Shown: one piece after another, positions 8,818-63,879 of the stretch | Layout of the letters: every line of letters begins with the position of its first letter | How positions within the stretch are numbered: the stretch's first letter is position 1 | Source: a bacterium | GTDB lineage: Bacteria; Bacillota; Clostridia; Oscillospirales; CAG-272 | Length of the DNA: 64,000 bases | Reading direction: 5' to 3' | NCBI GenBank assembly: GCA_963627065.1 | Contig: CAVGAA010000001.1 | Location: forward strand, 71,628 to 135,627 | Notes under the pieces: model-generated | Told to the model about the DNA's origin: nothing | Databases searched by the model: none | What the model saw: the letters and a program-made list of their open reading frames with translations, nothing else | Made by a program: the position numbers and the translations under genes

Positions 8818-9423
8818 TTATTTTGTACCGGTGACGTCGAAAATCAATTTCCACAACTCGTTCCGCCCTTCGCCCTTTTCGGAGGACGTGAACAGAATCG
8901 GTGTGTCGGTCGGAATGGACGGATGACCGTGCAAAAGATTTTCCGCATTTTTGCGTTCGGTCGCATTCAGTTTGTCCGATTTTGTCGCAACCACCGCAAA
9001 AGGCATTCCCACGTCACGCAGATAGGCGAGCATCATTTCATCGTCTTTCGTCGGACCGACTCGACTGTCAATCAACTGGATTACCAATTTGATAAGATCT
9101 GCGTTCTTGTTATTCGTAAAATAACCGTCGGTCAGTTCCGACCATTTCGCCTGATCTTCCGGTCGGCGTTTTGCAAAACCGTACCCCGGGAGGTCGACCA
9201 AAAACAGTTTTCCGTCCACGTCATAAAAATTGACCGTAATCGTCTTCCCCGGGGCGGAACTCACACGTGCAAGCGATTTTCTGCCGAGCAGGCAGTTGAC
9301 AAGCGAACTTTTTCCCACATTCGACCGACCGGAAAAGGCAATCTGCGGGATTGCATCGGTCGGGAACTGGCGTGGCAGTCCTGCACTGATACGCAGGGAC
9401 ACTTTGTTGAGATTGACGGACAT
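8818..9423 (-). CDS. engB: Ribosome-biogenesis GTPase EngB/YsxC
   Basis: G1 motif GRSNVGKSSL, then DLPGYGF and ATKSDK. Start taken at MSVNLNK (ATG 9423, GAGGTG SD), 7 nt after the lon stop. Confidence 0.9.
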   Translation of the reverse strand: MSVNLNKVSLRISAGLPRQFPTDAIPQIAFSGRSNVGKSSLVNCLLGRKSLARVSSAPGKTITVNFYDVDGKLFLVDLPGYGFAKRRPEDQAKWSELTDGYFTNNKNADLIKLVIQLIDSRVGPTKDDEMMLAYLRDVGMPFAVVATKSDKLNATERKNAENLLHGHPSIPTDTPILFTSSEKGEGRNELWKLIFDVTGTK

Positions 9424-9430
9424 AAACACC

Positions 9431-31872: not shown

Positions 31873-31913
31873 TTTACCCCTCCGCATATTCAAACAGCAA
31901 TCAGCGATTTCAC

Positions 31914-31942
31914 ATTGTACCACAAATGCAACCTTTTGTCAA
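31914..31942 (-). promoter_or_regulatory. Sigma-A-type promoter of the MFS gene; last recognisable core element before the AT-rich island
   Basis: The minus strand reads TTGACA (31942-31937), a 17-nt spacer, then TGgTACAAT (-10 at 31919-31914). Confidence 0.6.
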
Positions 31943-32177
31943 GATAAATAAAGAAATTATCAAGAGAATTTTGTTGTGTTACAATAGATGTGTCACAAAA
32001 AGCGTTGTTCAGTGTTAGGGCGGAATAAAAATTGGCTATTTATCTAATCGCCTGATGAAAAAAATCAACAATATTATATTTCGTAAGAATACACAAAACC
32101 GCACAAATCAAATTTTCAATCGTTTTTTTGTGTGTTTTGTGCTAATTTTATGTTATAATTGGCTGCTTTCGTTATTT

Positions 32178-32207
32178 TACTGTAAAAAGGTACACTTTTT
32201 TATAGTA
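32178..32207. repeat. 30-bp palindromic unit, copy 1 (TACTGTAAAAA-GGTACAC-TTTTTTATAGTA)
   Basis: Read directly. Its reverse complement closely matches the unit at 32338-32368. Confidence 0.8.
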
Positions 32208-32337
32208 AATTTTCTCACTTGTCAAGCATTACCAAAAATGTCAAAATGCACGAATTACAATGATGTTTATCTGTTATTGTAAACATTATATCACAAAAAG
32301 AAACGTTTGTCAAGCCTTTTTTTGATATTTATTCGAA

Positions 32338-32368
32338 AACTGTAAAAAAGTGTACCATTTTTACAGTG
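32338..32368. repeat. 30-bp palindromic unit, copy 2, inverted relative to copy 1 (AACTGTAAAAAA-GTGTACC-ATTTTTACAGTG)
   Basis: Read directly. It lies immediately upstream of the IS30-type transposase remnant. Confidence 0.8.
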
Positions 32369-32391
32369 GCTTTCATTGCATGTACAATTTT

Positions 32392-32680
32392 ATCTCTTTA
32401 ACTGAAAGTATGCTCCGTTTTAGCATTAGATTGAAGGTAGAGCCACATTCTGTGGAGACGGTAGACGAAGCCTTAAAAGCCGTTGTTTACCGCATACGGA
32501 AGTCGCTATTCAGAGGTCTTCCAAATCATTACAAGTGATAACGGATTGGAGTTTGCACATCTCGCCGAACTTAAAAAAATCGGTATCGGAGTCTACTTTA
32601 CCCACCCATACACGTCCTGCGAAAAACGGACCGTCGAGTGCCACAACAAGACGTTGAGACGGTTTATACCGAAGAAAAAA
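32392..32680 (+). pseudogene. IS30-family transposase remnant (central/C-terminal catalytic part only, frameshifted)
   Basis: Two frames carry ISLTESMLRFSIRLKVEPHSVETVDEALKAV, then FQIITSDNGLEFAHLAELKKIGIGVYFTHPYTSCEKRTVECHNKTLRRFIPKKK. These resemble the IS30 segments LTLvERkTRf and SITsDNGsEF...YFahPYssWERGtNEN...RRfiPK. The N-terminal half is absent. Confidence 0.65.
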
Positions 32681-32789
32681 GAGCATTGCGAATTATTGCA
32701 TTTTGCTATTGCAATTTCTACATTATTTAATAAGATAATGATAATTTTTTTATTTTCTTGCTGTGATAAAATAATGGAGGGCTATTTTG

Positions 32790-33809
32790 ATGAAACGAAA
32801 CCCGCAAAAAGAGTTTTATTTTCAATGGCATTTTTTGAATTCGTGTAATTTACGTTGCAAACATTGCTATCAAGAAGATTACAGATGTCAGGACATGGAT
32901 TTTGAAACTTTAAAAAAAATCGCTGATGAAATAATTAAAGCATTAATTCGATGGGATATGTACGGTCGCATATCTTTGACTGGAGGGGAACCTTTTTTAA
33001 GTAAGCACTTACATCGGTTGCTTGAGTATTTGAATCAATCGGAAAGGATCATTTCAATTGATATACTTACCAACGGAACGCTAATTACAGAATCTGATAT
33101 TAAAAAAATGAAAAGTTATAAAAAGTTACATCAAATACAAATTTCGCTTGATGGTGGTACAGCAGAAATTCATGATAGCGTTCGTGGAGCAGGTAATTTT
33201 GAAAAAGCATTACAAGGTATTAGGTTATTGAAGCAATCCGGTGTTGAAGTTGCTTTGATGTATACCTTGCAACAACTAAATAAGGATGGATATAACGATT
33301 TCATAGATGTTGCTTTGAGAGAAAATGTTGATGCAATTACGATTGAACGAGTTACCCCGTGCGGTCAAAGTGCGTTGCAAGACTTAATACCTGCAGATGA
33401 AATTAGAAGAATCTATACGGAAATTACTCGAAGAGCCAATGGTATGTCATCAAAACCAGTCATTAGACGAGCTCGTCCATTATGGATTAATACAATGTGT
33501 GATAACATTCGCTCTGATTGTAATATTGGGGGCTTTTGTCCCGTTGGGTTTACAGCTTTAGCAATACTCCATGACGGAACCGTCCTTCCTTGTCGAAGAA
33601 TGGAAATTCCATTAGGAAACATTTTAACGGATGGCTTGTTTAAAATTTGGTATTCAAGTGAAGTTCTTTGGAAGATACGTGACAAAAATAATTTAAAAGG
33701 TAAATGTCATGGATGCGAACATCTTTCTGCGTGTGGGGGATGCAGGGCTGTGGCATATGCAACAACTGGTGATTATTTGGAGGAGGATCCGCAATGCTGG
33801 AAAAACTAA
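32790..33809 (+). CDS. Radical SAM / SPASM-domain peptide-modifying maturase
   Basis: CNLRCKHC (CX3CX2C) and SLTGGEPF. The C-terminal auxiliary-cluster motifs are CPVGFTALAILHDGTVLPC (CX12GX4C) and CHGCEHLSACGGC...C. GGAGGG SD is 8 nt upstream. Confidence 0.85.
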   Translation: MKRNPQKEFYFQWHFLNSCNLRCKHCYQEDYRCQDMDFETLKKIADEIIKALIRWDMYGRISLTGGEPFLSKHLHRLLEYLNQSERIISIDILTNGTLITESDIKKMKSYKKLHQIQISLDGGTAEIHDSVRGAGNFEKALQGIRLLKQSGVEVALMYTLQQLNKDGYNDFIDVALRENVDAITIERVTPCGQSALQDLIPADEIRRIYTEITRRANGMSSKPVIRRARPLWINTMCDNIRSDCNIGGFCPVGFTALAILHDGTVLPCRRMEIPLGNILTDGLFKIWYSSEVLWKIRDKNNLKGKCHGCEHLSACGGCRAVAYATTGDYLEEDPQCWKN

Positions 33810-34078
33810 GTAATGTCTATCAATTAAATAATAATATTATTATAAAAGGTATCAATGACAAGTATTGGGCATTGGATACAAACACAGGTGCACAATTCCG
33901 ATTGAATGAATTATCATTTGATATTTTGTCTTTGACAAACGGTAATAACTCAGTTGATTACATCGTTGAACAGCAATTTGCAAAATATTCTGTAAAGAAA
34001 GAACTCCTAATTCGTGATATTCTTTCTTTTCTTGAAACAGCCTTGAATAAGGGGCTTATTTCAAAGAAAAAGGAATAA
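33794..34078 (+). CDS. PqqD-family peptide chaperone (RiPP recognition element)
   Basis: 94 aa: FRLNELSFDILSLTNGNNSVDYIVEQQFAKYSV...ILSFLETALNKGLI, a PqqD-like pattern. AGGAGG SD lies upstream and the gene overlaps the maturase gene by 16 nt. Confidence 0.8.
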   Translation: MLEKLSNVYQLNNNIIIKGINDKYWALDTNTGAQFRLNELSFDILSLTNGNNSVDYIVEQQFAKYSVKKELLIRDILSFLETALNKGLISKKKE

Positions 34079-34084
34079 TGATAT

Positions 34085-35275
34085 ATGCTTATAGATGCAC
34101 ACAGCCATTTAGGCACAAATGATTTGTGTACTGATGGAAAATCATTTAGGTATGATTTATCTAATACAGCAGATGAATACATTAAATACATGGATGCGAA
34201 TGGTATAAATAAAGCTGTGATACTTCCAATACCAGGAAACAATTACGACTCTGTAAAATCTAATGACGTTCTTTATTCGGCCAGTCTTAAGTATCCTAAC
34301 AGATTTATACCATTTTGCAAGTTGGACAGTTTTTTACCAACTAACATTATGTGCAAGGGGTTTTATGGGGCCAAGTATCATATGGTGTATGAATCTTATC
34401 CAAAAACAACCTTAAGTCAATATTATAAACTTTTGGAATACTATGGATTCCCTTTAATTATTCATGCAAAGTATCCTGAAAAGGGGAAACAAATTTGTGA
34501 TATCCTCGAAGTGGCACCAAATTTAAAGATAATACTTGCACATATGGGACGAGGTCATATTTATACTGATGAAATGATTCCAGATTTGTTAAATCAATTT
34601 AAGAATGTTCCGAATTTATTTTTTGAATCCTCAACTGTGGGTAGATCAAGAATGATTGAACTTGCTTGCGAGACTATTGGTGCTGATCGTCTTATGTACG
34701 GTTCAGACTATCCGTTTGGCAAGGCATGGTTCAGAGACTCATTTATTCCTGATGATGAAATGTCCGTAATATCAAAAGCGAATATTACAGTTGAAGAAAA
34801 AGAGTTAATTCTTCATGGAACAATCGAAAAGATTATTAAGAATTGCGATGAGAAGAGAAATGGTTTTTATGTGCGCCCTTATTTAAAGACTGATAAAAAT
34901 GAATTTGAAGCACTATTAGCATCACTCTCAAAATCTGATAGGAAGTTGCTTGCAATTGATAAAAAAATGTCTGTAATACACGATTGTATGAGAAATGAGC
35001 GGCATATTTATTTAGCTATTAATGCCGGGAAGATAGTCGGTTTCTTCAGGGAAAGCGGACGTTCTAATCATACTTTTATGTTAGAGGAATTTGCGGTTTT
35101 TCCTCAGTATCGTGGGCATGGTTTTTCTAAGTTAATGTTGCAATACTATACTGTATTTTTTGAAAAATCCTCTGTAAAGACATTATCGTCGAATGTCACC
35201 ATGAATCATATTTTGCCGATGTTTTCCTTTGTGCCAGTTTATGGAAAAGAAACGATAAATTGGATTCGAGCGTAG
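34085..35275 (+). CDS. Fusion protein: amidohydrolase_2 (TIM-barrel metal hydrolase) N-domain plus GNAT acetyltransferase C-domain
   Basis: LIDAHSHLG, ILAHMGRG and MYGSDYPF in the first 260 aa or so. The GNAT motif A, FAVFPQYRGHGFSKLML, lies near the C-terminus. Confidence 0.7.
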   Translation: MLIDAHSHLGTNDLCTDGKSFRYDLSNTADEYIKYMDANGINKAVILPIPGNNYDSVKSNDVLYSASLKYPNRFIPFCKLDSFLPTNIMCKGFYGAKYHMVYESYPKTTLSQYYKLLEYYGFPLIIHAKYPEKGKQICDILEVAPNLKIILAHMGRGHIYTDEMIPDLLNQFKNVPNLFFESSTVGRSRMIELACETIGADRLMYGSDYPFGKAWFRDSFIPDDEMSVISKANITVEEKELILHGTIEKIIKNCDEKRNGFYVRPYLKTDKNEFEALLASLSKSDRKLLAIDKKMSVIHDCMRNERHIYLAINAGKIVGFFRESGRSNHTFMLEEFAVFPQYRGHGFSKLMLQYYTVFFEKSSVKTLSSNVTMNHILPMFSFVPVYGKETINWIRA

Positions 35276-35280
35276 AAGCA

Positions 35281-36204
35281 ATGATTTTTAATAACGATAT
35301 TCTAAAAATCACCAATAATAAACGGGATTTTTATTCTCCAATTATAAGTGCGTTAGTTGAAACTAAATCTATAGAATTCTTTTTATCAAAAGGATTTCAT
35401 CTGTTTGCGTTACCAATTATGAATGATGCAGTTGCTACGAAAGAAAAAACGATTCAATTTAATTTTGACCATCAAAATATCGAATTAAATAGCAGTCAAG
35501 CAATGCGAATCTCAGCTTTATCTGCCTTTTATAATCAAGTTTTTTCAGTGAGTAAATGTTTTAGAAATGAAAAAAACGTTGATTTTTCGCATTTATCGGA
35601 ATTCACGATGTTAGAAGCAGAGTTTTCAATCGAAAAGGAGACTGATATTTTCGATTTGATAGAGAATTATTTAGCGTTTATTATTGACTGGTTTGACACA
35701 TTTATTGTTGAACAAAATTTGACAGATGTTTTTAAGCATCGTACTGTTTCGTTTCCCATAGAGCAAATTAATTATGATTTGTTGCTAAAAAGTGAGAAAA
35801 TCAAAGGCAAGAAGTTAATTTTTGATCATTTTGATTTTTGCGATATTGATGTAAGTGCGGATATCGATAAACCCATCTTTATTGTTAATTATCCGTGCGT
35901 TGGTTCTTGGCGGGCCAAACGCAAAGATAACTTACATGCTTTTTTGTACAACTTGATTCTACCATGCGGCTTTGGAGAATTAGTTGAGTGTTCAATTAGG
36001 GAAATCGATTATGCTTTTTATAAGCAGAAATTTGATTACTTAGGAATGTCCGAGTCTTATTCTTGGTACTTAGATGCTATGCGTATTAATCACGGTATAA
36101 AAGCTGGCTTTGGTCTTGGTTTAGAGCGACTTGCAGCTTGGCTTATGGATTTAAAAGCTATTGGCGATCAATTAATCTTTCCAAGATTGCCAGGAGGACA
36201 ATAA
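35281..36204 (+). CDS. Stand-alone class II (IIb, Asp/Asn/Lys-RS-like) aminoacyl-tRNA-synthetase catalytic core without an anticodon-binding domain
   Basis: Motif 2-like VSKCFRNEKNVDFSHLSEFTMLEAEF and motif 3-like GFGLGLERLAAWLMDL...LIFPRLPGG. At about 307 aa it is too short to hold the N-terminal OB fold. Alternative TTG start at 35260. Confidence 0.7.
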   Translation: MIFNNDILKITNNKRDFYSPIISALVETKSIEFFLSKGFHLFALPIMNDAVATKEKTIQFNFDHQNIELNSSQAMRISALSAFYNQVFSVSKCFRNEKNVDFSHLSEFTMLEAEFSIEKETDIFDLIENYLAFIIDWFDTFIVEQNLTDVFKHRTVSFPIEQINYDLLLKSEKIKGKKLIFDHFDFCDIDVSADIDKPIFIVNYPCVGSWRAKRKDNLHAFLYNLILPCGFGELVECSIREIDYAFYKQKFDYLGMSESYSWYLDAMRINHGIKAGFGLGLERLAAWLMDLKAIGDQLIFPRLPGGQ

Positions 36205-36206
36205 AA

Positions 36207-37010
36207 ATGTCAATTGAATTAGAAAGATGCACTATGGCCTTACATAGGATGGTTTATGAAATGAATCGTAAGGGCATAGAGCAATCAAGAATTACTAAAT
36301 GTGCTACGCAATTACTAATGAGCGGAGTTTCCCAAAATTCAATATCGACGGAAATTGTTCAAAAATGTATTGAAACTCAAAACAATGATGGCGGTTGGGT
36401 TGCAGTTGTTGACACAATATGGAATGCAAAGTTTTTATCATTTTTTAGTAAAACCAACGAAAATATTGTTCATGCATATCGATATTTAAATGATAACAAA
36501 GTGGATTTTGGTTTTGGAAGGTCTAAACGTGATATAGGTAGAATTCCGGTAACTGGTATCGCTTATTACTTACATCCTCAATTGGCAACTTTGGATGGAT
36601 TAAGATGGTTGGAAAATCTTTGGATTTCAGAAAAGAATGGACTAACATATAAAGCAGCTTATACATTGATGGCTTTCAAACGCACAAATTATAAGCCGTT
36701 AAATATTGGGGTTATAGAAGAAGCTGTTCTTTGGTTATTGTCTCAGCAGGAAAAAGATGGTGGCTTTTCTCCTTGGAAACATCATCCTGTAGGGACCAAT
36801 GTTTATTGTACGGCTCTTTCGTTGATTGGCTTACTTCAATACAATGAGTTTATTCCTCAAGCTAATGCTGCTATTGAGGCAGCTTATCAGTATATTTATA
36901 AAAATCAGTTAATCAATGGACTGTGGCCGTATCATGAATTAGAAGATGGTGGGGCATGGGGAATGCAAGCTATGTTTCAATATGAAAGCGAGTACGCACA
37001 TGAGTTCTAA
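36207..37010 (+). CDS. Prenyltransferase / squalene-oxidase-repeat (alpha-alpha toroid) protein
   Basis: Repeats QNNDGGWVAV, QQEKDGGFSPW and NGLWPYHELEDGGAWG. GGAGG SD precedes the ATG at 36207. Confidence 0.65.
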   Translation: MSIELERCTMALHRMVYEMNRKGIEQSRITKCATQLLMSGVSQNSISTEIVQKCIETQNNDGGWVAVVDTIWNAKFLSFFSKTNENIVHAYRYLNDNKVDFGFGRSKRDIGRIPVTGIAYYLHPQLATLDGLRWLENLWISEKNGLTYKAAYTLMAFKRTNYKPLNIGVIEEAVLWLLSQQEKDGGFSPWKHHPVGTNVYCTALSLIGLLQYNEFIPQANAAIEAAYQYIYKNQLINGLWPYHELEDGGAWGMQAMFQYESEYAHEF

Positions 37011-38253
37011 AAAATCCATTTTATTGGTATACCCTAAACCGCAATTTGATAAGAATCCGCGATTCGGTTTTTCAATTCAGCTGATGCAATTAGCTACAAT
37101 TTTGAAGCAAAAGTATAAAGTATTTTTTTTGGATTATTCTTATCTCGATTTTGATGAAAGCAAATTTCGCTTATATTTGTTAAATAATAACATATCGCAT
37201 ATTGTCGTTGAATTTGATTCTTTTTCACTAAAAAGATCTGAGAATTATGAAAATGCACTCTTATTACTTAATATTGCAAGGGAAAGAAAAATAATTTCAG
37301 TTGCTTTTGGTAATGATTGCATAATGGATAATTCAAATAGCATTTGTGCGGATTACATTATTAGAGAAGATCCATTATTAAAAATCGGGAAAATCTTTAA
37401 TGTTTTTTCTGATGAGTTGACGGAAATGGAATATGATGTTATTCCATTTCCAGATCGCGAATTGCTGAAAACTAATCCGTTTTTCTTAAAGAATTCTAAT
37501 TCTACACTTATTCGTACATCTGAAGGCTGTTTAAATACATGTTCTTTTTGTCAGCGTCGGGGGTGGCAAAAGAAATATAAAGCACATAATATTGAATATG
37601 TTATACGAGAATTTGAATATTTAAAGGACCACAATTACCAAAATGTATGGGTTGCAGATGATAATTTTACCTTCGATTTAAGTCGAGCAAAGAAAATTCT
37701 TTCAATTCTTTCGCAACAAAAATTAACTGTTGGAATGAATCTAGCGATTAGTAGCTGGACAAGAATAGATGAAGATTTATTACAGTTGGCACAACAGGCA
37801 AATGTAAAAATAATTAGTATGGGTATAGAATCTGCTAATTATGAAATATTGGACTTTTATAACAAAAAAATAGATTTACAAAGGACTAAACAGTTAATCG
37901 AATATGCAGATCTGCTTGGTATTTATACTATTGGAAATTTTATCATAGGAGCACCTATGGAAACAATGGTAACTATTGAAAATACCTTTGACTATATAAT
38001 GTCCACTAAATTAGATCAAATTAACATTAAAACTTTAGATTATATGCTCGGGTCAGTATTGTATGAAAATTTGCCAAAAAAGGTAGAGCACCACTATTTT
38101 GCATGCTCGGAAAATGGGTTGTGCAGTTTTTCACTAAATGAATTATCGAAAATTAAGAAAGATTTTCTTACAAGATTTAATTTGGAGAGGCAAGATTTTC
38201 GAATGGAAAAAATAAAAAAATTTGGACTTCCATATATTCCTTTAAAGATATAA
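37000..38253 (+). CDS. B12-binding-domain radical SAM enzyme (class B type)
   Basis: The N-terminal Rossmann-like segment (ILLVYPKPQ...KVFFLDYSY) is followed by RTSEGCLNTCSFCQ (CX3CX2C). It overlaps the previous gene by 11 nt. Confidence 0.75.
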   Translation: MSSKKSILLVYPKPQFDKNPRFGFSIQLMQLATILKQKYKVFFLDYSYLDFDESKFRLYLLNNNISHIVVEFDSFSLKRSENYENALLLLNIARERKIISVAFGNDCIMDNSNSICADYIIREDPLLKIGKIFNVFSDELTEMEYDVIPFPDRELLKTNPFFLKNSNSTLIRTSEGCLNTCSFCQRRGWQKKYKAHNIEYVIREFEYLKDHNYQNVWVADDNFTFDLSRAKKILSILSQQKLTVGMNLAISSWTRIDEDLLQLAQQANVKIISMGIESANYEILDFYNKKIDLQRTKQLIEYADLLGIYTIGNFIIGAPMETMVTIENTFDYIMSTKLDQINIKTLDYMLGSVLYENLPKKVEHHYFACSENGLCSFSLNELSKIKKDFLTRFNLERQDFRMEKIKKFGLPYIPLKI

Positions 38254-38254
38254 T

Positions 38255-39532
38255 ATGAATTATTGGATTTTGGGGTTAGGTGCTGTTGCGCAATGTTTTT
38301 TAAAACTTTTATGTGCTAACGAATCAATAGATGCTTCACATGTATATTGCATCGAGCCTGATTGCAAAAAAGTCTCAATTTTTGTAAAATTAGGTTTTAT
38401 TAAAAAAAACTTTATATGCAATGCGTTAAATAGATATAATTATGCAACGGTTTTACAATCATTGATTCCAAAGGATTATTGTATCGATTTTTCTAGTTTA
38501 ACCAATTCTAAAGATTTACTAGTTTTTTGTGCGAAAAAGAAAGTTCATTACCTTTCCGTAGCAGATACTTTTTGGAAAGATGAGTCAGAGAATTTCGGAG
38601 CAAGCCACATGGATTATTTGAATATAATTTCTTCTTTTCCTAATAATCCAACGTCGATTATACAATTTGGTATGAATCCAGGATTGGTTTCATCATTTGC
38701 AAAGCAAAGCATAAAAATGCTCTGGTCAATCAATACTTTGACAGAATCAAAAAATGCCATTAAGCAGCAGGATGAGTTTTGTATTGCAAAAAAAGCATCA
38801 ATCTTAAATATAAATAAAATTTGTATCTGTGATTGGGACATGCAACATTCCAATCTCAATATTGAGAAAAGCACTATTTACTCGACATGGAACATTGATG
38901 CTTTTGTGAATGAAGCAACAACTCGTCCGGAATATCCTGCAGGCATTCCCAATGACGACAACATGGATGAGATAGTAGATTTTAATCTTAACTATCGAAG
39001 GAAAAATGTTCCTGCTTATGCAGCTATGCATGAATTAGTTTCACCTATAAACAGTACTAATGGCTTTATTATGACGCATGAAGAAACATACTCTATTGCA
39101 CATTATTTGTCGTATAGAGAATCTGATAAAATAACTTATAGGCCTGAAGTTATATTTGTATACAAACCATGTAATGAATCAATATTTTCTATTAAGAATC
39201 TATTGAAGGCCGGTTTTGATAGATTAGATTCATTTCAAAAACACATTTTAGTTCCTAGAGAAATCATTTCAGGTGGAGAGTATGTAGGGGTAACATTATA
39301 TCAAAATGATATACCTATATTTTACTTCGGAAATGATTGCGAAAAAAGTGGTATAGAAGGCTCTAATATAACTGTATTTCAAGTCGCTGTTTCGTGTTTT
39401 GCTGCATTGAAATACATAGAAACGCATGCGGATTTTGGAATACTTTTCCCGGAAGATGTTGATGATGATTTTATTATCGATATTGTTCGTCAATTTATGA
39501 GGTTGAATTATGGATTTATTAAAAAAGCATAA
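38255..39532 (+). CDS. Saccharopine-dehydrogenase / homospermidine-synthase-like NAD(P)-binding protein
   Basis: N-terminal ILGLGAVAQ Rossmann loop. FGMNPGLVSSFAKQSI resembles the GANPGLVSHFVKQA motif recalled for homospermidine synthases. It starts 1 nt after the preceding stop. Confidence 0.5.
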   Translation: MNYWILGLGAVAQCFLKLLCANESIDASHVYCIEPDCKKVSIFVKLGFIKKNFICNALNRYNYATVLQSLIPKDYCIDFSSLTNSKDLLVFCAKKKVHYLSVADTFWKDESENFGASHMDYLNIISSFPNNPTSIIQFGMNPGLVSSFAKQSIKMLWSINTLTESKNAIKQQDEFCIAKKASILNINKICICDWDMQHSNLNIEKSTIYSTWNIDAFVNEATTRPEYPAGIPNDDNMDEIVDFNLNYRRKNVPAYAAMHELVSPINSTNGFIMTHEETYSIAHYLSYRESDKITYRPEVIFVYKPCNESIFSIKNLLKAGFDRLDSFQKHILVPREIISGGEYVGVTLYQNDIPIFYFGNDCEKSGIEGSNITVFQVAVSCFAALKYIETHADFGILFPEDVDDDFIIDIVRQFMRLNYGFIKKA

Positions 39533-39743
39533 ATGTTCTCATTGCAGAGGAGCTGGTAAAATATTTTGTTACGAATGTAGGGGAACTGGAGGAATTAGCA
39601 ATTTTGAATTGCATGATCATGAAGGAAATTCATCGCTTTTTGATGGTGAATTATTAGACCGGTTGTGTTCCATATGTTTTGGCACTGGCAAAATTGTTTG
39701 TAAAGTTTGTAACGGAACAGGAAAAAGTTGTAGACTGTGTTAA
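39510..39743 (+). CDS. Small DnaJ-CR-type zinc-finger protein (4x CxxCxGxG, 77 aa)
   Basis: CSHCRGAG, CYECRGTG, CSICFGTG and CKVCNGTG, plus a terminal CRLC. GAGG SD lies upstream and the gene overlaps the previous gene by 23 nt. Confidence 0.7.
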   Translation: MDLLKKHKCSHCRGAGKIFCYECRGTGGISNFELHDHEGNSSLFDGELLDRLCSICFGTGKIVCKVCNGTGKSCRLC

Positions 39744-39782
39744 TCCACAGATTCTATAAATATAAAAGAAAGGAGAAAAATT

Positions 39783-39911
39783 ATGGAAAAAATGTCTTAT
39801 AGTGCTCCCGTCCTTGAAGAGGTTACTGAGATGGTCTTCACAAAAGAAGTTTGGGAAGAATTTAACAGTGGTCGCTGGTGCTTTGGTTGCTCTAATTGCA
39901 ATTGCAACTAA
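39783..39911 (+). CDS. Candidate RiPP precursor peptide (42 aa), not in the ORF track
   Basis: AAAGGAG lies 7 nt before the ATG. Own translation: MEKMSYSAPVLEEVTEMVFTKEVWEEFNSGRWCFGCSNCNCN*. It has an acidic leader-like N-terminus and four Cys in the last 10 residues, and is the last gene of the island operon. Confidence 0.7.
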   Translation: MEKMSYSAPVLEEVTEMVFTKEVWEEFNSGRWCFGCSNCNCN

Positions 39912-39937
39912 AGTAGAATTTTAAGATTTAGGACGGG

Positions 39938-39990
39938 GATGCCATTCCTGATATATAGAGATATGTATCGGGGATGGTATCTTTGCATTT
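39938..39990 (+). terminator. Possible operon terminator after the precursor ORF
   Basis: GATGCCAT (39938-39945) pairs with ATGGTATC (39974-39981) with one G-U pair, followed by TTTGCATTTT. The loop is long, so this call is weak. Confidence 0.3.
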
Positions 39991-40889
39991 TACTTTTTCT
40001 CTTTGTACAACCGGTATTGCACGGGACTCATACCGTTCAGATTCATTTAAATTCTTTCGTTGTTGTAGTACGCAATGTACTCCTCCAATTTCTCAATGAA
40101 TCCCCGAGGGGATTCAAATTTTTCGCCGTAAAACATCTCAACTTTCAGCCGTCCGAAGAAATTTTCCATGACACTGTTGTCAAGGCAATTCCCTTTCCGT
40201 GACATACTCTGCGTGATGTGATGCTCGGCGAGAAGCCTCTGGTACTCGGGGTGCTGGTACTGCCAGCCTTGGTCGGAATGGAACAGCGGTCTTGCATCCG
40301 GCGGGAGTTTTTCGAACAATCCTGCCAACATATCCTTGACTTGTTGCAGGTTGGGACTCAGGGAAATAGTGTAGGCGAGGACCTCACGGTTAAATAAATC
40401 GAGGACGAGCGAGAGGTAGATTCTTACATCGAAGACCTTAAACTCCGTGATGTCTGTTGTTATCTTTTCGAACGGCTTATCTGCGTGAAAATCCCTGTTC
40501 AGCACGTTGTCGGCAGTCTTTCCGATCGTGCCTTTGTAGGAATTATAACTGCCGTTTTTGCTCTGTTTTCCCTTCAAACCGAGCATTTTCATCAGTTTCA
40601 GGACGGTTTTGTGGTTGATTTTGAAGTTTTCTGACCGCATGACAGCCAAGATTCGTCTGTAACCGTATCTGCCTTTGTTGTCGTCGAAGATTTTCTTGAT
40701 TGCCGTTTTTTCCTCTTGGTACTTGTCCTTGCCTTTTTGTTTCAGGTAATAGTAGAACGTACTCCTTGCCATTCCGGAAACAGCCAGCAGATCTTTCAGC
40801 GGAAACCATTGCCTCAGCTCAGCAGGTAAGGTCACATCCGGAAGCTCCGAGTACACCGAATAAACGGAATCTTTCCCGTCGGTCGTCAC
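39990..40889 (-). pseudogene. IS3-family transposase OrfB (integrase core) with a premature stop
   Basis: RSTFYYY, GYRRI, HSDQGWQY and GNCLDNSVMENFFG motifs. TAA at 40049-40047 interrupts ...YYNNERI*MNLNGMSPVQYRLYKEKK*, cutting off the conserved SPxxYR tail. Confidence 0.75.
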
Positions 40890-40934
40890 GAAACTCCTTG
40901 TTCGTAGCTACGGCTACGACCTGCGTCCTTTCAT

Positions 40935-41427
40935 TTAGACCGGCAGAAAATCTTCTCGCCCCTCGTCGCACTCTCTGCTTTCGGGTGTGACCTTTGAACG
41001 CTTTTTCCCGTTCTTTTGCTCGTCCGCTCGAACTAAGGCATCTAATTTTTTTAGGTATTCGTTTTCGATTCTGAGACGCAGATTTTCCGATGCCATTGCT
41101 TTGATTTCGTCCTCGGTCTGAGGGACATAAATCTCGCCCGATTTGCCTTGTTTCTTGCTTTCCTCAATAGTTGATTCTTTGATCTTTTTGAGATCCTTGA
41201 AAGCCTTTTCTCTCCGTTCTTCCATGAGACCTTTTTCGCCTTCCTCTTTGAATATGCGTTCCCATCGCTTAACCGTTTCGGTGTACCGACCTTCGCAACC
41301 TTTGGAATTTTTCCAATATTTGCGGACGGTTTCCTTGTAGCCGAGTCCGTGTTCCAGCATATCCATTATAACACGGATTTTGAAATTTGTCGAGTACTTT
41401 TTGTTTTTTTCTTTTGCCTTTTTTCAT
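40935..41427 (-). pseudogene. IS3-family OrfA (HTH) with a 1-nt frameshift just after its start codon
   Basis: ATG at 41427 follows AAGGAG but is +1 relative to the frame encoding KKAKEKNKKYSTNFKIRVIMDMLEHGLGYKETVRKY. The shift lies in the A6 run after the ATG. Confidence 0.7.
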
Positions 41428-41541
41428 GTTTTTCTGCTCCTTTTAGGTTGATTGTAACCTGCCTTGAAAAGTTTGACATTAAGTGTCTAACTTTTGGGGT
41501 GCAGAACAAAACTGATTTTTAGATGTGCCCTATAGAACCAA

Positions 41542-41569
41542 AGCAGGCAACGCCACCGCACTGCCTGCT
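41542..41569 (-). terminator. Hairpin terminator after the MutS-like gene
   Basis: AGCAGGCA/TGCCTGCT 8-bp stem with a 12-nt loop, followed by a T-rich tail on the minus strand. The IS3 end (41508) lies just beyond it. Confidence 0.5.
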
Positions 41570-41585
41570 GATAAAGACTGAAAAA

Positions 41586-43190
41586 TCATTCCTGAATCCG
41601 TTTCAAAATTGCATCGTAAGTCAAACCGTAACTCTGTGCAATGTCACGGGCATAACTCTTGCCGTCCGGTTTTGCACGGCGAATTTTGAAGGACCGTTTT
41701 CCGCCGGTTTCCATTCCGGCAACCAAGGTATCAATCGGAACACCACCGCTTGTACGGGACTTTTTGTCGAGTTCTTCAATTTCCGCCGCCAGCTCGTGCA
41801 GGTGTGTCGAAAACAGACATCTGCAACCGATATGAGCCAAACCGGATAATACCTCCGCCGCAATGTAGGAAGCCTCATAACTTCCGGTCGAGGATAGTGA
41901 TTCGTCAAGCAAAACCAAACTGTGCGATGTCACGCAATCGATAATTTCACTCAGCCTTGCACACTCCTCGCCGAGTCGCCCTTTGTCAATCGTGTCTTCC
42001 GCACCGGTCGGGAAATGCGTGTAAATGCCGTCAACGGGGGACACGGCAATTTTTTCGGCAGGCAGATACATACCGAGTTGCAACATTACCTGTGCCAGCC
42101 CGACGGCACAGGTGATAACCGATTTACCGCCACGGTTCGGACCGGACAACACATAAATGGTCGCATTTTCGTCAAATTTAATGTCGTTCGGAACGATTTC
42201 GTCTTCGATTTTGAGTGCCACGCACGGATTGTACAGTCCCACGGCATCAAAGGCTTTTTCGCCCAACGGACGGATGTCCGGAGCGGTGAGGGGACATCCT
42301 TTCTCACGCAGTTTTTGCATCATCTGCGTACCACGCACCAAAAATTCAAATTCCGGCATTAAGTTGAGCAAAAATTCGGTATTTTCCAAAACATAGGTCT
42401 GGACGATTTTTTTCCAAGAGCGGAGCGAAGATTTGTAAACCTCATTGATCGCACTGTTGAATGCGAGCGAGAGAGCCATTTTTTGATTTTCGGATTGCTT
42501 TTTACCGAACGGAACGAGATTCGCAATGCAGGTATATTCGTCGTTTTTGAAATTCAAACGGAGAATTTTGTCCAACACGTCCCCCGACTTGAACGGTTCG
42601 GAATTGACCGACAAAACACCGGCGGACGAGGGGCGAAGTTGTGCATCGAGATTGACACCGACCGTCACGCTCCGAATCTCTCTCACACGCTGTGTCAATT
42701 CCGACAGTTTGCGGTTGAGTTCCCGATAATAATCGCTTTCCGCCAACTGCGTTACAAGATCGGACAGTGCAGTGAAAGCAGGGCTTTTCAACTGTCCTTT
42801 GACAGCCGTCAGGGACGAATGCAGAACATCGACGCTCGAAACGTACAACTCAATTTCGGTAATGCTCGAAAGGTAGTCGTTCGTATCACCGCTGTCGGCT
42901 TCCAGACGCCGTAATTCCATAATATCGTTCAAAACCGGAACCAAACGGTTCATCATATCGGTAAGTTCCGTGTGATTCAGCATATCGTCGAATGTTGCAA
43001 TTCTGTATTGCATCACACGGGGATCGGTTGTAAAGAAAGAAGACAAATCGCCGTTTTTGAGCGACAGAACTTCTGTCAGTCCCAATTCTTGCAAAGTAAA
43101 CAAATCAATGTCCGGAACGTCCGCACCGTTCTCGTGGCGTTTGCGGGATTCCTCGTCCGGATAAATCAAACTGAAATTGTGAAAATCCAT
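41586..43190 (-). CDS. MutS-related ATPase (MutS domain V only; no mismatch-recognition domain)
   Basis: Walker A GPNRGGKSV, then LVLLDESLSSTG and STHLHELA. Start at MDFHNF (43190) follows AAGGAG. Confidence 0.8.
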   Translation of the reverse strand: MDFHNFSLIYPDEESRKRHENGADVPDIDLFTLQELGLTEVLSLKNGDLSSFFTTDPRVMQYRIATFDDMLNHTELTDMMNRLVPVLNDIMELRRLEADSGDTNDYLSSITEIELYVSSVDVLHSSLTAVKGQLKSPAFTALSDLVTQLAESDYYRELNRKLSELTQRVREIRSVTVGVNLDAQLRPSSAGVLSVNSEPFKSGDVLDKILRLNFKNDEYTCIANLVPFGKKQSENQKMALSLAFNSAINEVYKSSLRSWKKIVQTYVLENTEFLLNLMPEFEFLVRGTQMMQKLREKGCPLTAPDIRPLGEKAFDAVGLYNPCVALKIEDEIVPNDIKFDENATIYVLSGPNRGGKSVITCAVGLAQVMLQLGMYLPAEKIAVSPVDGIYTHFPTGAEDTIDKGRLGEECARLSEIIDCVTSHSLVLLDESLSSTGSYEASYIAAEVLSGLAHIGCRCLFSTHLHELAAEIEELDKKSRTSGGVPIDTLVAGMETGGKRSFKIRRAKPDGKSYARDIAQSYGLTYDAILKRIQE

Positions 43191-49692: not shown

Positions 49693-51927
49693 GTGTTCGC
49701 AATCGATAAAATGCCACAAAACCTGTTGGATTTGCTCCCGACCTACCACATCGATGCGGATGCACCGGAACTTTCCTGCTTTGTTGACCGCAACCGTGAG
49801 GGGAAACCTGCAAAAATTTGGCTTTTGGCAGATAAAAACTACTTTTATATGCTCACGGAAAAAGCCGAAGCTTTCGATGTAGAGCAGTACGCTCTCTCGG
49901 ATCTTTCGAATTTTCAAGTCGAAGAACGCCTTTCAACGGCAACCCTTATCGGTGACCGAAAGGGTGAAACAATCCTTTTCGCAACCTTTACCAATACCTG
50001 CCTCGTGTCGGTGCGGATGTTCGTCCGCTATTTTGCCAAACTTCTTGACGGCGAAAAAATCGAAATTGACGAAGAAGACCTGCCCGACGAACGCTTTTGC
50101 CCGATTTGCGGAATGCGTTACCCCGATCCGAACCGCAAACTATGTCCGCATTGCGTGGACAAAGGGCAACTTTTCCGCAGAACGTGGAATTTTTTCTTAC
50201 CTTATAAAAAGAGTTTAATGGTGCTTTTGGCATCGCTCATTCTCTTAACCGCCACAAGCATTTTAGCTCCGTATCTGTCAAGCGGATTTTTCTTTGACGA
50301 GGTTATCGATACGGACGGCAAATTTGCCGGTGCATTGCTCCTCGTGCTGTTTCTCATTGCGGGAACAAAACTCATCCGAGCTTTTGCAAGTATGCTCAAC
50401 AACTGGCTCTCGTCAAATGTTGCCGCACAAATGACATATAGCCTCAAAAAAACGATTTTCAACGCCATTGAACGTCTCTCGCTCAGCTTCTTTACCGGTC
50501 GGCAGACGGGGGGACTCATGACGCAGGTCAATGAGGATGCCAACACCATATACGAATTTTTCTGCGACGGCATTCCGTATCTCATTGTCAATGTTGTGCA
50601 GGTTATCGTGTTGGTTGTCCTGCTCCTGACCATTCAACCGATTCTCGCATTTTTCGCACTACTGCCCGTACCGCTTTTCTTTCTCATTATACGAGCTATG
50701 TTCAAAAGCGAGCGGAAACTGCACGCCAAACGCTTTTCCAACTCCTCAAAAATGAGCGGTTTTCTCGCCGATGTTCTGTCCGGCATGCGTGTCGTCAAGG
50801 CATTTTCGCAGGAAAAAGAAGAAATACGTCGCTTTTCCGGCTATAACCGCAATCTGGCGGACAGCGGACGAAAATTGCAGATTTATCACAATCTTGTCGG
50901 CGGTATAGCGGGGGCATTGCTTTTTCTCGGCAATATTATCGCATGGGGTGTCGGCGGTTGGATGGTCATGAACGATTTCGGCGGTATGACTTACGGCAGA
51001 CTCCTCACTGTCATTTCCTATATGAATATGATTTATTCTCCGCTGTTTTTCTTCTCGGGACTGACACAGCGGTTTGCCGATTGCACCAACGCCCTCAACC
51101 GTCTTTATGAAATTATGGATGCCGAACCGGATGTCCGTGAAAGTCCGGATGCATTAACTCCCGAAAATCTCGGTAGCGAGGTCGTTTTTGATCATGTTTC
51201 GTTCTCCTATAACAAGGGCAGACGGGTGATAGACGATGTCAGTTTCCGTGTTCCGTCCGGTGGCGTGCTCGGAATTGTCGGACACACGGGGGCGGGAAAA
51301 AGCACCCTTGCAAACCTTTTGATGCGACTGTACGATGCGGAAGAAGGGGAGATCCGAATCGGCGGAATTCCGGTCAAAAATTTATCTTTCCGCTCGATTT
51401 ATAAAAATGTCGCAATCGTTTCGCAAGAAACCTATCTCTTTATGGGAACGATACTCGACAACATTCGTTACGCCAATCCGAATGCCACTTATGACGAAGT
51501 GATCGAGGCTTCCCGCACGGCAGGGGCTCACGATTTTATTGTCACTTTACCTGACGGCTACCATACGAGAGTCGGTTTCGGCTTTACCGAACTTTCGGGT
51601 GGCGAAAAACAGCGGATTTCCATCGCGAGAGCGATTCTGAAAAATCCGAAAATTTTGATTCTTGATGAGGCAACCGCCGCAATGGACACGGCAACCGAAC
51701 GCAGAATTCAAAACGCACTTTCGAAATTGATTGTCGGCAAAACCACCATTATGATAGCCCACAGACTTTCCACTTTGCGTGATGCCGACAGTCTGATTGT
51801 CATCGAACACGGAAAAGTCGTCGAAAGCGGAACACACAAAGAACTGCTTGCAAAAGAAGACGGTGTTTACAACAGACTTTACACCTTGCAATTGGAGGCA
51901 CTTCGCAGTGCCGGAATTGCGGAATAG
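49693..51927 (+). CDS. ABC exporter (permease/ATPase) with an N-terminal cytoplasmic extension of about 200 aa that includes a zinc ribbon
   Basis: GTG at 49693 follows AAAGGAG (ATG alternative at 49711). Motifs: CPICGMRYPDPNRKLCPHC, Walker A GHTGAGKST, LSGGEKQR and ILILDEATAAMD. The track start at 49459 would overlap the previous gene. Confidence 0.85.
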   Translation: MFAIDKMPQNLLDLLPTYHIDADAPELSCFVDRNREGKPAKIWLLADKNYFYMLTEKAEAFDVEQYALSDLSNFQVEERLSTATLIGDRKGETILFATFTNTCLVSVRMFVRYFAKLLDGEKIEIDEEDLPDERFCPICGMRYPDPNRKLCPHCVDKGQLFRRTWNFFLPYKKSLMVLLASLILLTATSILAPYLSSGFFFDEVIDTDGKFAGALLLVLFLIAGTKLIRAFASMLNNWLSSNVAAQMTYSLKKTIFNAIERLSLSFFTGRQTGGLMTQVNEDANTIYEFFCDGIPYLIVNVVQVIVLVVLLLTIQPILAFFALLPVPLFFLIIRAMFKSERKLHAKRFSNSSKMSGFLADVLSGMRVVKAFSQEKEEIRRFSGYNRNLADSGRKLQIYHNLVGGIAGALLFLGNIIAWGVGGWMVMNDFGGMTYGRLLTVISYMNMIYSPLFFFSGLTQRFADCTNALNRLYEIMDAEPDVRESPDALTPENLGSEVVFDHVSFSYNKGRRVIDDVSFRVPSGGVLGIVGHTGAGKSTLANLLMRLYDAEEGEIRIGGIPVKNLSFRSIYKNVAIVSQETYLFMGTILDNIRYANPNATYDEVIEASRTAGAHDFIVTLPDGYHTRVGFGFTELSGGEKQRISIARAILKNPKILILDEATAAMDTATERRIQNALSKLIVGKTTIMIAHRLSTLRDADSLIVIEHGKVVESGTHKELLAKEDGVYNRLYTLQLEALRSAGIAE

Positions 51928-63804: not shown

Positions 63805-63879
63805 TGGGGTGTAGCCAAGTGGTAAGGCACCAGACTTTGACTCTGGCACTCGTCGGTCCGAATCCGGCCACCCCAGCCA
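63805..63879 (+). tRNA. tRNA-Gln (anticodon UUG), CCA encoded
   Basis: Hand-folded cloverleaf: acceptor TGGGGTG/CACCCCA, anticodon stem CCAGA/TCTGG with loop CTTTGAC, T arm GTCGG-TCCGAAT-CCGGC, discriminator G, then CCA. Confidence 0.9.

Follow-up and report, generated by a model that had tools for sequence, protein, structure and literature searches.

What does a block of markedly low G+C content encode in the chromosome of a gut bacterium, and how did it come to be there? These questions are raised by a 64,000-nucleotide (nt) stretch of an assembly from the CAG-272 lineage of the Oscillospirales, Clostridia (GCA_963627065.1, contig CAVGAA010000001.1, forward-strand positions 71,628 to 135,627), which we refer to as the window and whose own numbering is used throughout. 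An earlier note, made from the sequence alone, had proposed an island here with decayed insertion sequences (ISs) at both ends and nine intact cargo genes, and left the biosynthetic nature of that cargo unrecognised. Our analyses indicate that the low-GC block (~32.7-40.0 kb) is very probably a horizontally acquired, single-strand operon for a peptide that is made on the ribosome and modified after translation (RiPP), and that it represents a widespread, undescribed family. The evidence that carries this assignment is the composition of the block, its gene content, and the recurrence of the same operon, with a nearly identical peptide, in unrelated genomes.

The G+C content of positions 31901-40046 is 0.331, versus 0.471 for the remainder of the 64-kb window, and none of 198 equal-length windows elsewhere was as low, all of them falling within 0.462-0.488. 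In a 1-kb profile G+C is 0.30-0.36 over the interval from 32 to 40 kb and 0.43-0.52 elsewhere, and the two ranges do not meet even at their extremes, with 0.369 as the top 1-kb value in the block and 0.394 as the lowest outside; a 200-nt profile places the start of the drop at ~31.85 kb, at the start of a gene for an MFS protein, and its end at ~40.05 kb. Codon usage changes with it: G+C at third codon positions (GC3) is 0.21-0.30 in the eight open reading frames (ORFs) for enzymes and accessory proteins, 0.42 in the 42-amino-acid (aa) precursor ORF, and 0.48-0.55 in six flanking genes. This discontinuity in composition and codon usage is far beyond local variation, and it bears out both the contrast of about one-third to about one-half G+C that had been judged by eye and the reported shift to A/T-ending codons. 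The boundaries drawn in the earlier note need one correction. The MFS promoter and the terminator hairpin of the MutS-like gene lie where they had been placed, and at the promoter-like site G+C falls from 0.42-0.47 to ~0.30; however, the low-GC block stops at ~40050, before the IS3 copy. Nor is the island uniform, as an IS30 fragment (~32.4-32.7 kb) has a G+C content of ~0.43 and the IS3 copy (40.05-41.5 kb) one of 0.46, which is host-like.

The nine cargo ORFs on the forward strand are all uninterrupted, as had been claimed, and are tightly packed over 7.1 kb (Table 1). Based on their predicted products, these genes are an operon for a ribosomally made peptide: we found a radical S-adenosylmethionine (SAM) enzyme in which a CxxxCxxC motif is combined with a SPASM domain, a PqqD element of the RiPP recognition element (RRE) type, and an adjacent, conserved precursor ORF, which together characterize the radical SAM/SPASM-RRE class of RiPP pathways. 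In the maturase the CxxxCxxC motif (CNLRCKHC) is accompanied by the full SPASM cysteine pattern. Its best NCBIfam matches are RiPP maturases, all below their cut-offs (the best, ACGX, at 173.5 bits against 400), and it lies under the curated cut-off for each of ACGX, SbtM, PapB, StsB, SkfB, AlbA, PqqE, and MftC; the nearest solved structures are SkfB and CteB. The amidohydrolase-GNAT fusion has the HxH motif (DAHSH) of the first domain and the Q-x-x-G-x-G motif (QYRGHG) of the second. The second radical SAM enzyme has a class-B-like layout, an N-terminal domain followed by the radical SAM core, with weak matches to PhpK, HpnJ, BchE, and ApyD and AprD4 and TokK as its nearest solved structures. 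The small zinc-finger protein has a counterpart in L009-type clusters, a 47-aa CxxC protein. Genes for an exporter, a leader protease, or immunity are absent from the operon, both in the window and in the related loci that we tabulated, and no riboswitch or other RNA family was detected upstream of it. The terminator-like hairpin that closes the operon may overlap the eroded end of the IS3 copy.

The precursor of the window ends in WCFGCSNCNCN. A small ORF with this type of C-terminus was present in all nine lineages that we retrieved through the enzymes, and its core, WCF[G/A]C[T/S]NCNCN followed by the stop codon, is essentially invariant across phyla. For the precursor gene in eight lineages, synonymous differences per site (pS) are 0.6-1.5, that is, saturated, whereas nonsynonymous differences (pN) are 0-0.07 in the final 11 codons and 0.015-0.20 when the final 27 are taken. 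These values indicate that the peptide sequence is under strong purifying selection, and the earlier claim of continued selection on the cargo holds for the precursor gene. Among the enzyme homologs, at 33-78% protein identity, synonymous sites are saturated. The leaders are more varied: the contigs found with a core-derived DNA pattern (see below) have ~70 different ones, which share the motif M-x-F-[TPS]-x-E-[IV]-W-E-E-F-x-x-G-x. No Pfam or NCBIfam model matches the precursor.

Intact ORFs could also be a by-product of recent arrival, in which case the cluster would be a non-functional relic that is unexpressed or yields no product. The nearly unameliorated GC3, the weakness of the promoter-like site upstream (32717-32745, 9/12 matches), and gene decay in a related lineage (L001-L006) are compatible with such a relic. 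However, none of the nine ORFs is broken in 7.1 kb, although the IS elements on either side have both decayed, the catalytic motifs are intact in the maturases, the asparaginyl-tRNA synthetase (AsnRS)-like enzyme, the amidohydrolase, the GNAT domain, and the homospermidine synthase (HSS) homolog, and the tightly coupled or overlapping gene junctions are preserved. We therefore regard a relic as improbable.

Three ways into the databases led to related clusters. When the AsnRS-like protein was used as the query against 5.8 billion proteins, ~10 truncated relatives (33-53% identity) were recovered before canonical AsnRS at ~28%, and the contigs of these relatives had the same neighbours in the same order, with a small ORF ending WCFGC[T/S]NCNCN in all. 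Retrieval with the toroid protein, which is independent of both the AsnRS-like protein and the precursor, reached Desulfitibacter sp. BRH_c19, Synergistaceae, and Selenomonadaceae, where the precursors end WCFGCTNCNCN or WCFACTNCNCN; the toroid family is compact, with 57 representatives at E <= 1e-30 among 1.84 billion. The back-translated core, used as a DNA pattern, identified 88 metagenome contigs and two long IMG/VR contigs. The operon and the precursor C-terminus are accordingly found in Clostridia, Bacilli, Selenomonadaceae, Desulfitibacter, and Synergistaceae, in addition to metagenome contigs. A scan of GTDB with the AsnRS-like alignment returned only two loci and is an undercount because it used a single peptide pattern, as the precursor-anchored scan showed AsnRS-like genes in 34 loci. 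Exact-sequence look-ups gave no record for the HSS-like protein, the MFS protein, or a third protein (P0001), and matched the toroid protein only to a 2.3-kb contig; they thus yielded neither a conspecific genome nor a close relative of this particular island.

When the seven shared genes were compared with the window by tblastn in six lineages, identities were highest for the maturase (61-78%), followed by the toroid protein (45-64%), the second radical SAM enzyme (44-60%), the amidohydrolase-GNAT fusion (38-56%), PqqD (39-54%), and the AsnRS-like protein (33-50%). Co-occurrence was counted over 95 loci, many of them short. The maturase was found in 67, the amidohydrolase in 54, the toroid protein and PqqD in 45 each, the second radical SAM enzyme in 40, and the AsnRS-like gene in 34, while a variant with a beta-propeller protein, extra radical SAM enzymes, and a methyltransferase accounted for ~24; a creatininase-family gene and a short CxxC protein were present in six loci each. 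The HSS homolog occurred in none of the 95, so it is specific to the window's copy. The cluster is an undescribed and widely distributed RiPP family with no curated family, solved structure, or paper in the literature searched; our searches returned nothing on the motif, on AsnRS-like enzymes in RiPP pathways, on the combination of toroid and radical SAM proteins, or on HSS in RiPPs.

Some of the related loci differ in architecture. In L024 (5000-6315) and six other loci, a creatininase-family gene and a small methyltransferase gene lie upstream of the maturase; the creatininase family is that of the mycofactocin peptidase MftE. A larger alternative arrangement around the same precursor, with no AsnRS-like gene, is found in Desulfitibacter sp. 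BRH_c19 (LOER01000033; L020/L021, 1422-13332), where the additional genes encode a beta-propeller (LVIVD) protein, unknown proteins of 446 and 399 aa, a 513-aa radical SAM protein, a SAM methyltransferase, and a fourth radical SAM protein, and parts of this arrangement are common to ~24 metagenome loci. An orphan precursor ORF ending ...SQEIWEEFAGGSWCFGCTNCNCN was detected at 2143-2325 of L026 (IMGVR_UViG_3300028028_000007 = Ga0265292_1000179, 117,752 bp), a high-GC contig classed as viral, with none of the usual maturation genes within the 9.7 kb examined; it also occurs in L072.

That the block is foreign follows from its aberrant composition together with the presence of homologous operons beside different mobile elements in unrelated genomes. 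The cluster adjoins a tyrosine integrase and an excisionase-like gene in L001, phage-like genes in L007, and IS21 with a Mob_Pre relaxase gene in L010; in L022 it lies in a housekeeping context, between def/fmt and ctsR/clpC. Of 26 loci with enough flanking sequence, 13 have a cluster G+C at least 0.05 below the surroundings (up to 0.369 versus 0.598) and none has one above them. This pattern fits a history in which low-GC lineages exported the cluster repeatedly and its composition then ameliorated in hosts of long standing, and with the same operon in unrelated genomes it sustains the proposal in the earlier note of horizontal acquisition from a low-GC donor. That the event was old, as also stated there, is doubtful, since the GC3 of the cargo has undergone almost no amelioration.

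The left flank is core chromosome of host G+C, with genes for IleRS, LspA, RluD, a Mur ligase, and Dus, then GH127, DUF4097, and MFS proteins. In the nearest relative found, L015 (MutS 90% identical, DNA ~77%), the block is missing, as is the MFS side. Synteny with L015 starts from SecA (SecA, SpoU, a 255-aa protein, MutS) and ends within ~30 nt of the MutS stop codon, at the IS3 end (window 41508-41590 versus L015 11600-11700); past MutS, L015 continues with rplA-rplK-nusG-secE-rpmG, genes that are absent from the whole window. The predicted empty site, in which the MFS gene would adjoin MutS, was consequently not found, as rplA is next to MutS in L015. The IS3/MutS junction lies at a rearrangement breakpoint relative to L015, which suggests that the rearrangement was IS3-associated.

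Could the two IS remnants have carried the block? A composite transposon, with an IS30 and an IS3 end that mobilized the cargo before they decayed, would account for the IS-derived sequences at both edges of the low-GC block and for the break in synteny exactly at the IS3/MutS junction. On the left, the match to the IS30 transposase comprises residues 7-67 of the ORF at 32483-32848 and profile positions 183-245 alone, and it represents a short internal fragment; the piece upstream (32350-32538), which had been taken for a frameshifted part of the same gene, has no significant profile match, so that only the internal fragment of that description stands. On the right, the IS3 copy does have several inactivating lesions, as described earlier, in a coding content that is nearly full length by profile coverage. 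Three-frame translation against the intact relative ISBce15, itself found by protein search, revealed that a slip of 1 nt in the A-run directly behind the start codon of orfA puts this ATG out of frame with the rest of the gene, that orfA and orfB share one frame but are separated by three stop codons (the ISBce15 orfB is in the -1 frame), and that there is an in-frame TAA 18 codons before the natural end of orfB. The IS3 copy has no convincing terminal inverted repeats, with none detectable at the cargo-proximal end, and its matches to plasmid DNA are only short, at 70%.

Thus the remnants belong to different families, both are defective, and neither has a further copy in the window. Their G+C content is 0.43-0.46 versus 0.33 for the cargo, and we found no matching ends, shared inverted repeats, or target duplications, no direct or inverted repeats bracketing the block beyond chance 11-12-mers, and no integrase or tRNA gene at its edges. 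In addition, the related clusters use other vehicles (the tyrosine integrase, IS21/Mob_Pre, and phage-like genes above). A composite transposon is therefore very improbable, and there is no evidence that these elements ever moved the block, which removes the basis for the earlier suggestion that mobility was lost through their decay. Because they differ in family, are unlike the cargo in composition, and are not associated with bracketing repeats, the two remnants, IS30 and IS3, cannot be taken as the ends of a transposon; they are unrelated debris beside the insertion rather than its vehicle. The locus illustrates that IS debris beside an island says nothing on how the island moved.

Among characterized systems, the predicted kinship of the operon is with the radical SAM/SPASM-RRE RiPP pathways, here with two unusual recurrent enzymes and, in the window, a unique polyamine-type accessory. 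It resembles the sactipeptide (SkfA/SkfB), ranthipeptide (CteA/CteB, PapA/PapB), and NxxC/NxxcB systems in having a SPASM maturase, a PqqD-type element, and a short precursor with a Cys-rich core. Unlike SkfB and CteB, whose N-terminal RRE is fused, the RRE is a separate PqqD protein. Unlike the thioether RiPP pathways in general, the cluster always adds a second radical SAM enzyme, an amidohydrolase, and a toroid protein, usually accompanied by an AsnRS-like enzyme; it is without a transporter or protease, its core is invariant across phyla, and its maturase is below the curated cut-offs. With the pathways for pyrroloquinoline quinone (PQQ; PqqA/D/E) and mycofactocin (MftA/B/C/E) it shares a very short precursor with an invariant C-terminus, a PqqD chaperone with a radical SAM/SPASM enzyme, a hydrolase for trimming, the lack of an exporter or immunity gene and, in some relatives, a creatininase-family gene (compare MftE). 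It differs from these two in its patchy distribution, often on mobile islands, in scores for PqqE and MftC that are far below the cut-offs, and in a Cys/Asn-rich core of 11 residues rather than one or two. In what it lacks (exporter, leader protease, immunity gene) and in its invariant core, the cluster is closer to PQQ and mycofactocin, as cofactor-type RiPPs, or to conserved peptides of the SCIFF kind than to bacteriocins. We saw no co-inherited client enzymes or recurrent neighbours in the related loci, the context being housekeeping in L022 and mobile in L001, L007, and L010.

These comparisons bear on whether the product might be a classical secreted bacteriocin of the sactipeptide or ranthipeptide type, used for competition in the gut. 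The radical SAM/SPASM enzyme and RRE, the Cys-rich core, and the nearest solved relatives SkfB and CteB are what such a pathway would have, and islands, mobile elements, and a patchy distribution are in keeping with it. On the other hand, no tabulated locus has an exporter, a C39 protease, or an immunity gene in the operon, the maturase does not reach the curated cut-off of any sactipeptide or ranthipeptide family, and between Clostridia and Synergistaceae the core of 11 residues hardly varies. Invariance of this kind is unusual in antagonistic peptides and typical of cofactor-type precursors. We consider a bacteriocin to be a possible but rather unlikely product.

In our judgement it is extremely improbable that the island serves in anti-phage defence, or in some other role outside RiPP biosynthesis, and contains radical SAM enzymes by coincidence. 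The arguments for such a role are weak PADLOC matches to pVip and PDC-M51A and the defence-island-like neighbours of some related loci (reverse transcriptase, methyltransferase/ATPase, Tad2-like). However, the PADLOC matches cover the generic radical SAM core only, at 74 and 50 bits versus ~170 for the peptide-maturase families, the other seven proteins have no defence-family match, and the PqqD chaperone and conserved precursor ORF are hallmarks of RiPP pathways. Comparison with PHROGs gave generic matches only. The neighbours that resemble defence or mobile islands are at L001 16134-19157, L009 8530-15465, and L007 3420-6501 and 14568-15743, and include a 744-1036-aa protein with a reverse-transcriptase domain, an N6/N4 methyltransferase with an ATPase and an RdRP-like protein of 998 aa, two kinases of the Ser/Thr type, and a Tad2-like gene together with an endolysin-like Amidase_2 gene.

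The first of the unusual recurrent enzymes is the AsnRS-like protein. Its sequence matches in the PDB are AsnRS (1x54, 2e-21) and archaeal AsnA, but at 307 aa versus 431-505 aa it has no anticodon-binding OB domain (PF01336). Motif 2 (FRNE...HLSEF...LEAE) and motif 3 (GFGLGLER, that is, GxGxGxER) are kept and are invariant in the family, and the S-x-R-E segment is kept as well, whereas the Arg pair of the motif 2 loop is lost (K-T-R-R-H to x-D-x-x-H) and the pocket is remodelled (K-A-F-Y-M to S-W-R-A-K and G-G-S-Q-R-E to E-[CF]-S-x-R-E). An AlphaFold2 (AF2) model has the class IIb core, with template-modelling (TM) scores of 0.77-0.80 to AsnRS-adenylate complexes and low confidence in the motif 2 loop. 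Curated scores are not reached for AsnRS (103 bits versus 414), AsnA (75.5 versus 309), or EpmA (35.1 versus 286.9). In length and fold the protein shares the catalytic-core-only architecture of the AsnA/EpmA class; like EpmA/PoxA, the EF-P lysyl ligase, and archaeal AsnA, it consists of a catalytic core of ~300 aa that retains the residues for adenylate formation together with motifs 2 and 3, but unlike them it is encoded in a RiPP operon, has a remodelled pocket, and scores far below the curated cut-offs. The retention of motifs 2 and 3, the loss of the anticodon domain and of the loop Arg pair, and the class IIb model point to an enzyme that activates a carboxylate with ATP and does not involve tRNA. 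Two invariant features of the peptide, its C-terminal Asn and the Ser/Thr hydroxyl, are candidate sites for the enzyme. The "asparagine synthetase" of the ammosamide pathway was considered as a parallel and rejected, being an unrelated amidotransferase of the AsnB type.

The second is the toroid protein, for which AF2 predicts a single (alpha/alpha)6 barrel at a local confidence (pLDDT) of 96.5. By sequence it has weak matches to squalene cyclases, prenyltransferases, and thioester domains. The top Foldseek matches come from the class II terpene cyclases, namely MstE, drimenyl-diphosphate synthase, and squalene-hopene cyclases, with TM scores of 0.70-0.74 at 14-17% identity. We rejected its assignment as a class II terpene cyclase, as its invariant columns lack the DxDD motif and it scores 30 bits against a cut-off of 323, and likewise as a LanC-type lanthionine cyclase, based on the absence of LanC from the 50 best PDB matches and of any match to PF05147. 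Its invariant residues are K22, R28, D61, R105, R108, D109, R112, E142, K149, H193, and H243, and the protein could bind the acidic leader or a co-substrate that bears a diphosphate.

The accessory found in the window alone is the HSS homolog, which has no NCBIfam match. It was compared with the catalytic residues of BvHSS, Glu117, Asn162, Glu210, Trp229, Glu237, His296, and Glu298 (PMC8489232), of which five of the seven (Asn162, Trp229, Glu237, His296, and Glu298) are identical. Like BvHSS and PaHSS, it is a full-length match that conserves the Glu-His-Glu triad and the NAD-binding GxGxxA along with the Asn of the centre site and the cation-pi Trp, but it differs from them in the inner-site Glu210, which is Asp, in the "ionic slide" Glu117, which is Thr, and in being encoded between the second radical SAM and precursor genes. 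It is probably an active NAD-dependent enzyme of the aminobutyl-transfer type with an altered substrate.

From these resemblances a pathway can be proposed. The PqqD protein would bind the conserved acidic leader motif (M-x-F-T-K-E-V-W-E-E-F) and present the peptide to the radical SAM/SPASM enzyme, which would cross-link the Cys-rich tail, most likely through thioethers from Cys sulfur to carbon, Asn being a precedented acceptor. SkfB and CteB are peptide maturases that form Cys thioethers. A radical SAM-catalyzed Cys-to-Asn beta-thioether within N-x-x-C has a precedent in NxxcB (PMC9389541), and the end of the core, ...N-C-N-C-N, contains the N-x-x-C spacing. We favour thioether cross-linking because of this spacing, the NxxcB precedent, and SkfB and CteB as the nearest solved relatives. 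The second radical SAM enzyme might add a further radical modification, either a methylation or a second cross-link. The AsnRS-derived enzyme would activate a carboxylate (of Asn or Asp, or that of the peptide's C-terminal Asn) and ligate it independently of tRNA, in the manner of EpmA and archaeal AsnA, the amidohydrolase-GNAT fusion could trim and/or acylate the peptide, the toroid protein would be a conserved partner in the pathway, and in this genome only the HSS homolog may add a step of the polyamine type. Given the strict invariance of the core and the lack of an exporter, immunity gene, or leader protease, the evidence points to a product that is cofactor-, metal-binding-, or signal-like rather than a fast-diversifying bacteriocin.

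In its most specific form this proposal is speculative, and we hold it to be unlikely as a whole: the undecapeptide WCFGC(T/S)NCNCN would be not an antibiotic but the scaffold or precursor of a conserved cofactor-, metal-binding-, or signal-like molecule of anaerobes, made with an AsnRS-derived, tRNA-independent ligase and, in the window version, conjugated to a polyamine supplied or installed by the HSS homolog. Such a ligase would activate the C-terminal Asn (or free Asn/Asp), couple it to a nucleophile, and parallel EpmA and the PEARL enzymes in function. The PEARLs are known peptide aminoacyl ligases that are LanB-like and use tRNA. If the proposal is correct, RiPP chemistry would gain, with the AsnRS-derived ligase, a kind of enzyme that is not so far known there; more generally, the AsnRS-derived enzyme and the toroid protein may perform new peptide-modifying reactions. 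That an 11-residue Cys/Asn core is retained almost without change among enzymes only 33-60% identical suggests that the product has a conserved partner or acts like a cofactor. Compact and with nine genes, the operon of this gut Clostridia genome is a defined experimental target and a good lead for new peptide chemistry, and the window's copy, as the sole one with an HSS homolog, can be compared with the others for the diversification of the pathway.

Several points weigh against the interpretation of the block as an acquired and conserved RiPP operon with this chemistry. For the 90 loci that were found with the DNA pattern, an unchanging core follows from the search itself, so the independent evidence of invariance is that from the nine enzyme-retrieved lineages. 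Since no conspecific genome without the island was found, the insertion is inferred and not seen directly. In about nine of the 26 loci the cluster has a host-like G+C content and lies among housekeeping genes (for example, in L022), from which it follows that the system is not always mobile. In L001-L006, which are contigs from human-gut metagenomes, the amidohydrolase-GNAT gene is fragmented (~9300-10000) with the other cluster genes intact, except in L004, where the radical SAM/SPASM gene is split as well; these copies may be in decay, or the amidohydrolase-GNAT protein may be dispensable. Finally, the strength of the specific chemistry is low, as every step is drawn from family resemblance at low identity.

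Table 1. Features of the low-GC block and its edges in the 64-kb window.
Feature	Position	Strand	Evidence or description
MFS promoter-like site, left edge of low-GC block	31914..31942	-	TTGACA-17-TACAAT, 11/12 matches, with TG
AT-rich non-coding spacer	31943..32440	.	G+C 0.27-0.30; no Rfam match
IS30-family transposase, internal fragment	32501..32683	+	NCBIfam NF033563 positions 183-245/267, E 4e-19 to 1e-18
Radical SAM/SPASM peptide maturase, 339 aa	32790..33809	+	Pfam Radical_SAM 1e-27, SPASM 2e-10
PqqD-family peptide chaperone (RRE), 94 aa	33794..34078	+	Pfam PqqD (PF05402) 1e-9, 38.9 bits versus cut-off 23.4
Amidohydrolase_2-GNAT acetyltransferase fusion, 396 aa	34085..35275	+	Pfam Amidohydro_2 4e-14, GNAT 1.5e-5
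Truncated class IIb aminoacyl-tRNA synthetase paralog, AsnRS-like catalytic core only, 307 aa	35281..36204	+	Pfam tRNA-synt_2 5e-30
(alpha/alpha)6 toroid protein, single domain, 267 aa	36207..37010	+	Terpene-cyclase/prenyltransferase-beta/thioester-domain fold
Second radical SAM enzyme, ~417 aa	37000..38253	+	Pfam Radical_SAM 7e-19, residues 190-351
HSS homolog, 425 aa	38255..39532	+	PDB sequence matches 6y87 (3e-34), 2ph5 (2e-32), residues 5-415
Zinc-finger protein, 77 aa, four CxxC(x)GxG motifs (DnaJ/BSD2 type)	39510..39743	+	Weak Pfam BSD2_CRD, DnaJ_CXXCXGXG
Precursor peptide gene, 42 aa, MEKMSYSAPVLEEVTEMVFTKEVWEEFNSGRWCFGCSNCNCN	39783..39911	+	Upstream GGAG-type ribosome-binding site
Terminator-like hairpin, operon end	39936..39983	+	20-pair stem, T-rich tail
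Defective IS3-family element	39990..41508	-	NF033516 positions 2-90 (orfA), 92-356 (orfB) of 369
IS3 orfA	ATG at 41427, to 40935	-	
IS3 orfB	40889-40047, tail to 39990	-	
MutS-domain-V gene terminator hairpin, right host boundary	41542..41569	-	12-pair stem, 7 GC pairs
Host MutS-domain-V gene	41586-43187		

At the left edge of the block, a 78% copy of the 32-nt MFS promoter segment (31912-31943) is present 371 nt deeper in the island, at 32283-32314. It has perfect -35 and -10 elements on the reverse strand (TTGACA-17-TATAAT with TG) and is framed by a 23-nt inverted repeat (32184-32206 / 32339-32361, 91% complementary). The promoter copy and the repeat may be the remnant of an insertion junction or a small mobile element. 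A 183-nt stretch that is 71% identical between 13929-14111 and 51591-51773 derives from paralogous ABC-transporter ATPase genes and not from mobile repeats. The sole RNA gene detected in the window, a tRNA-Gln with anticodon TTG, is located at 63805-63879, far from the island and unrelated to it.

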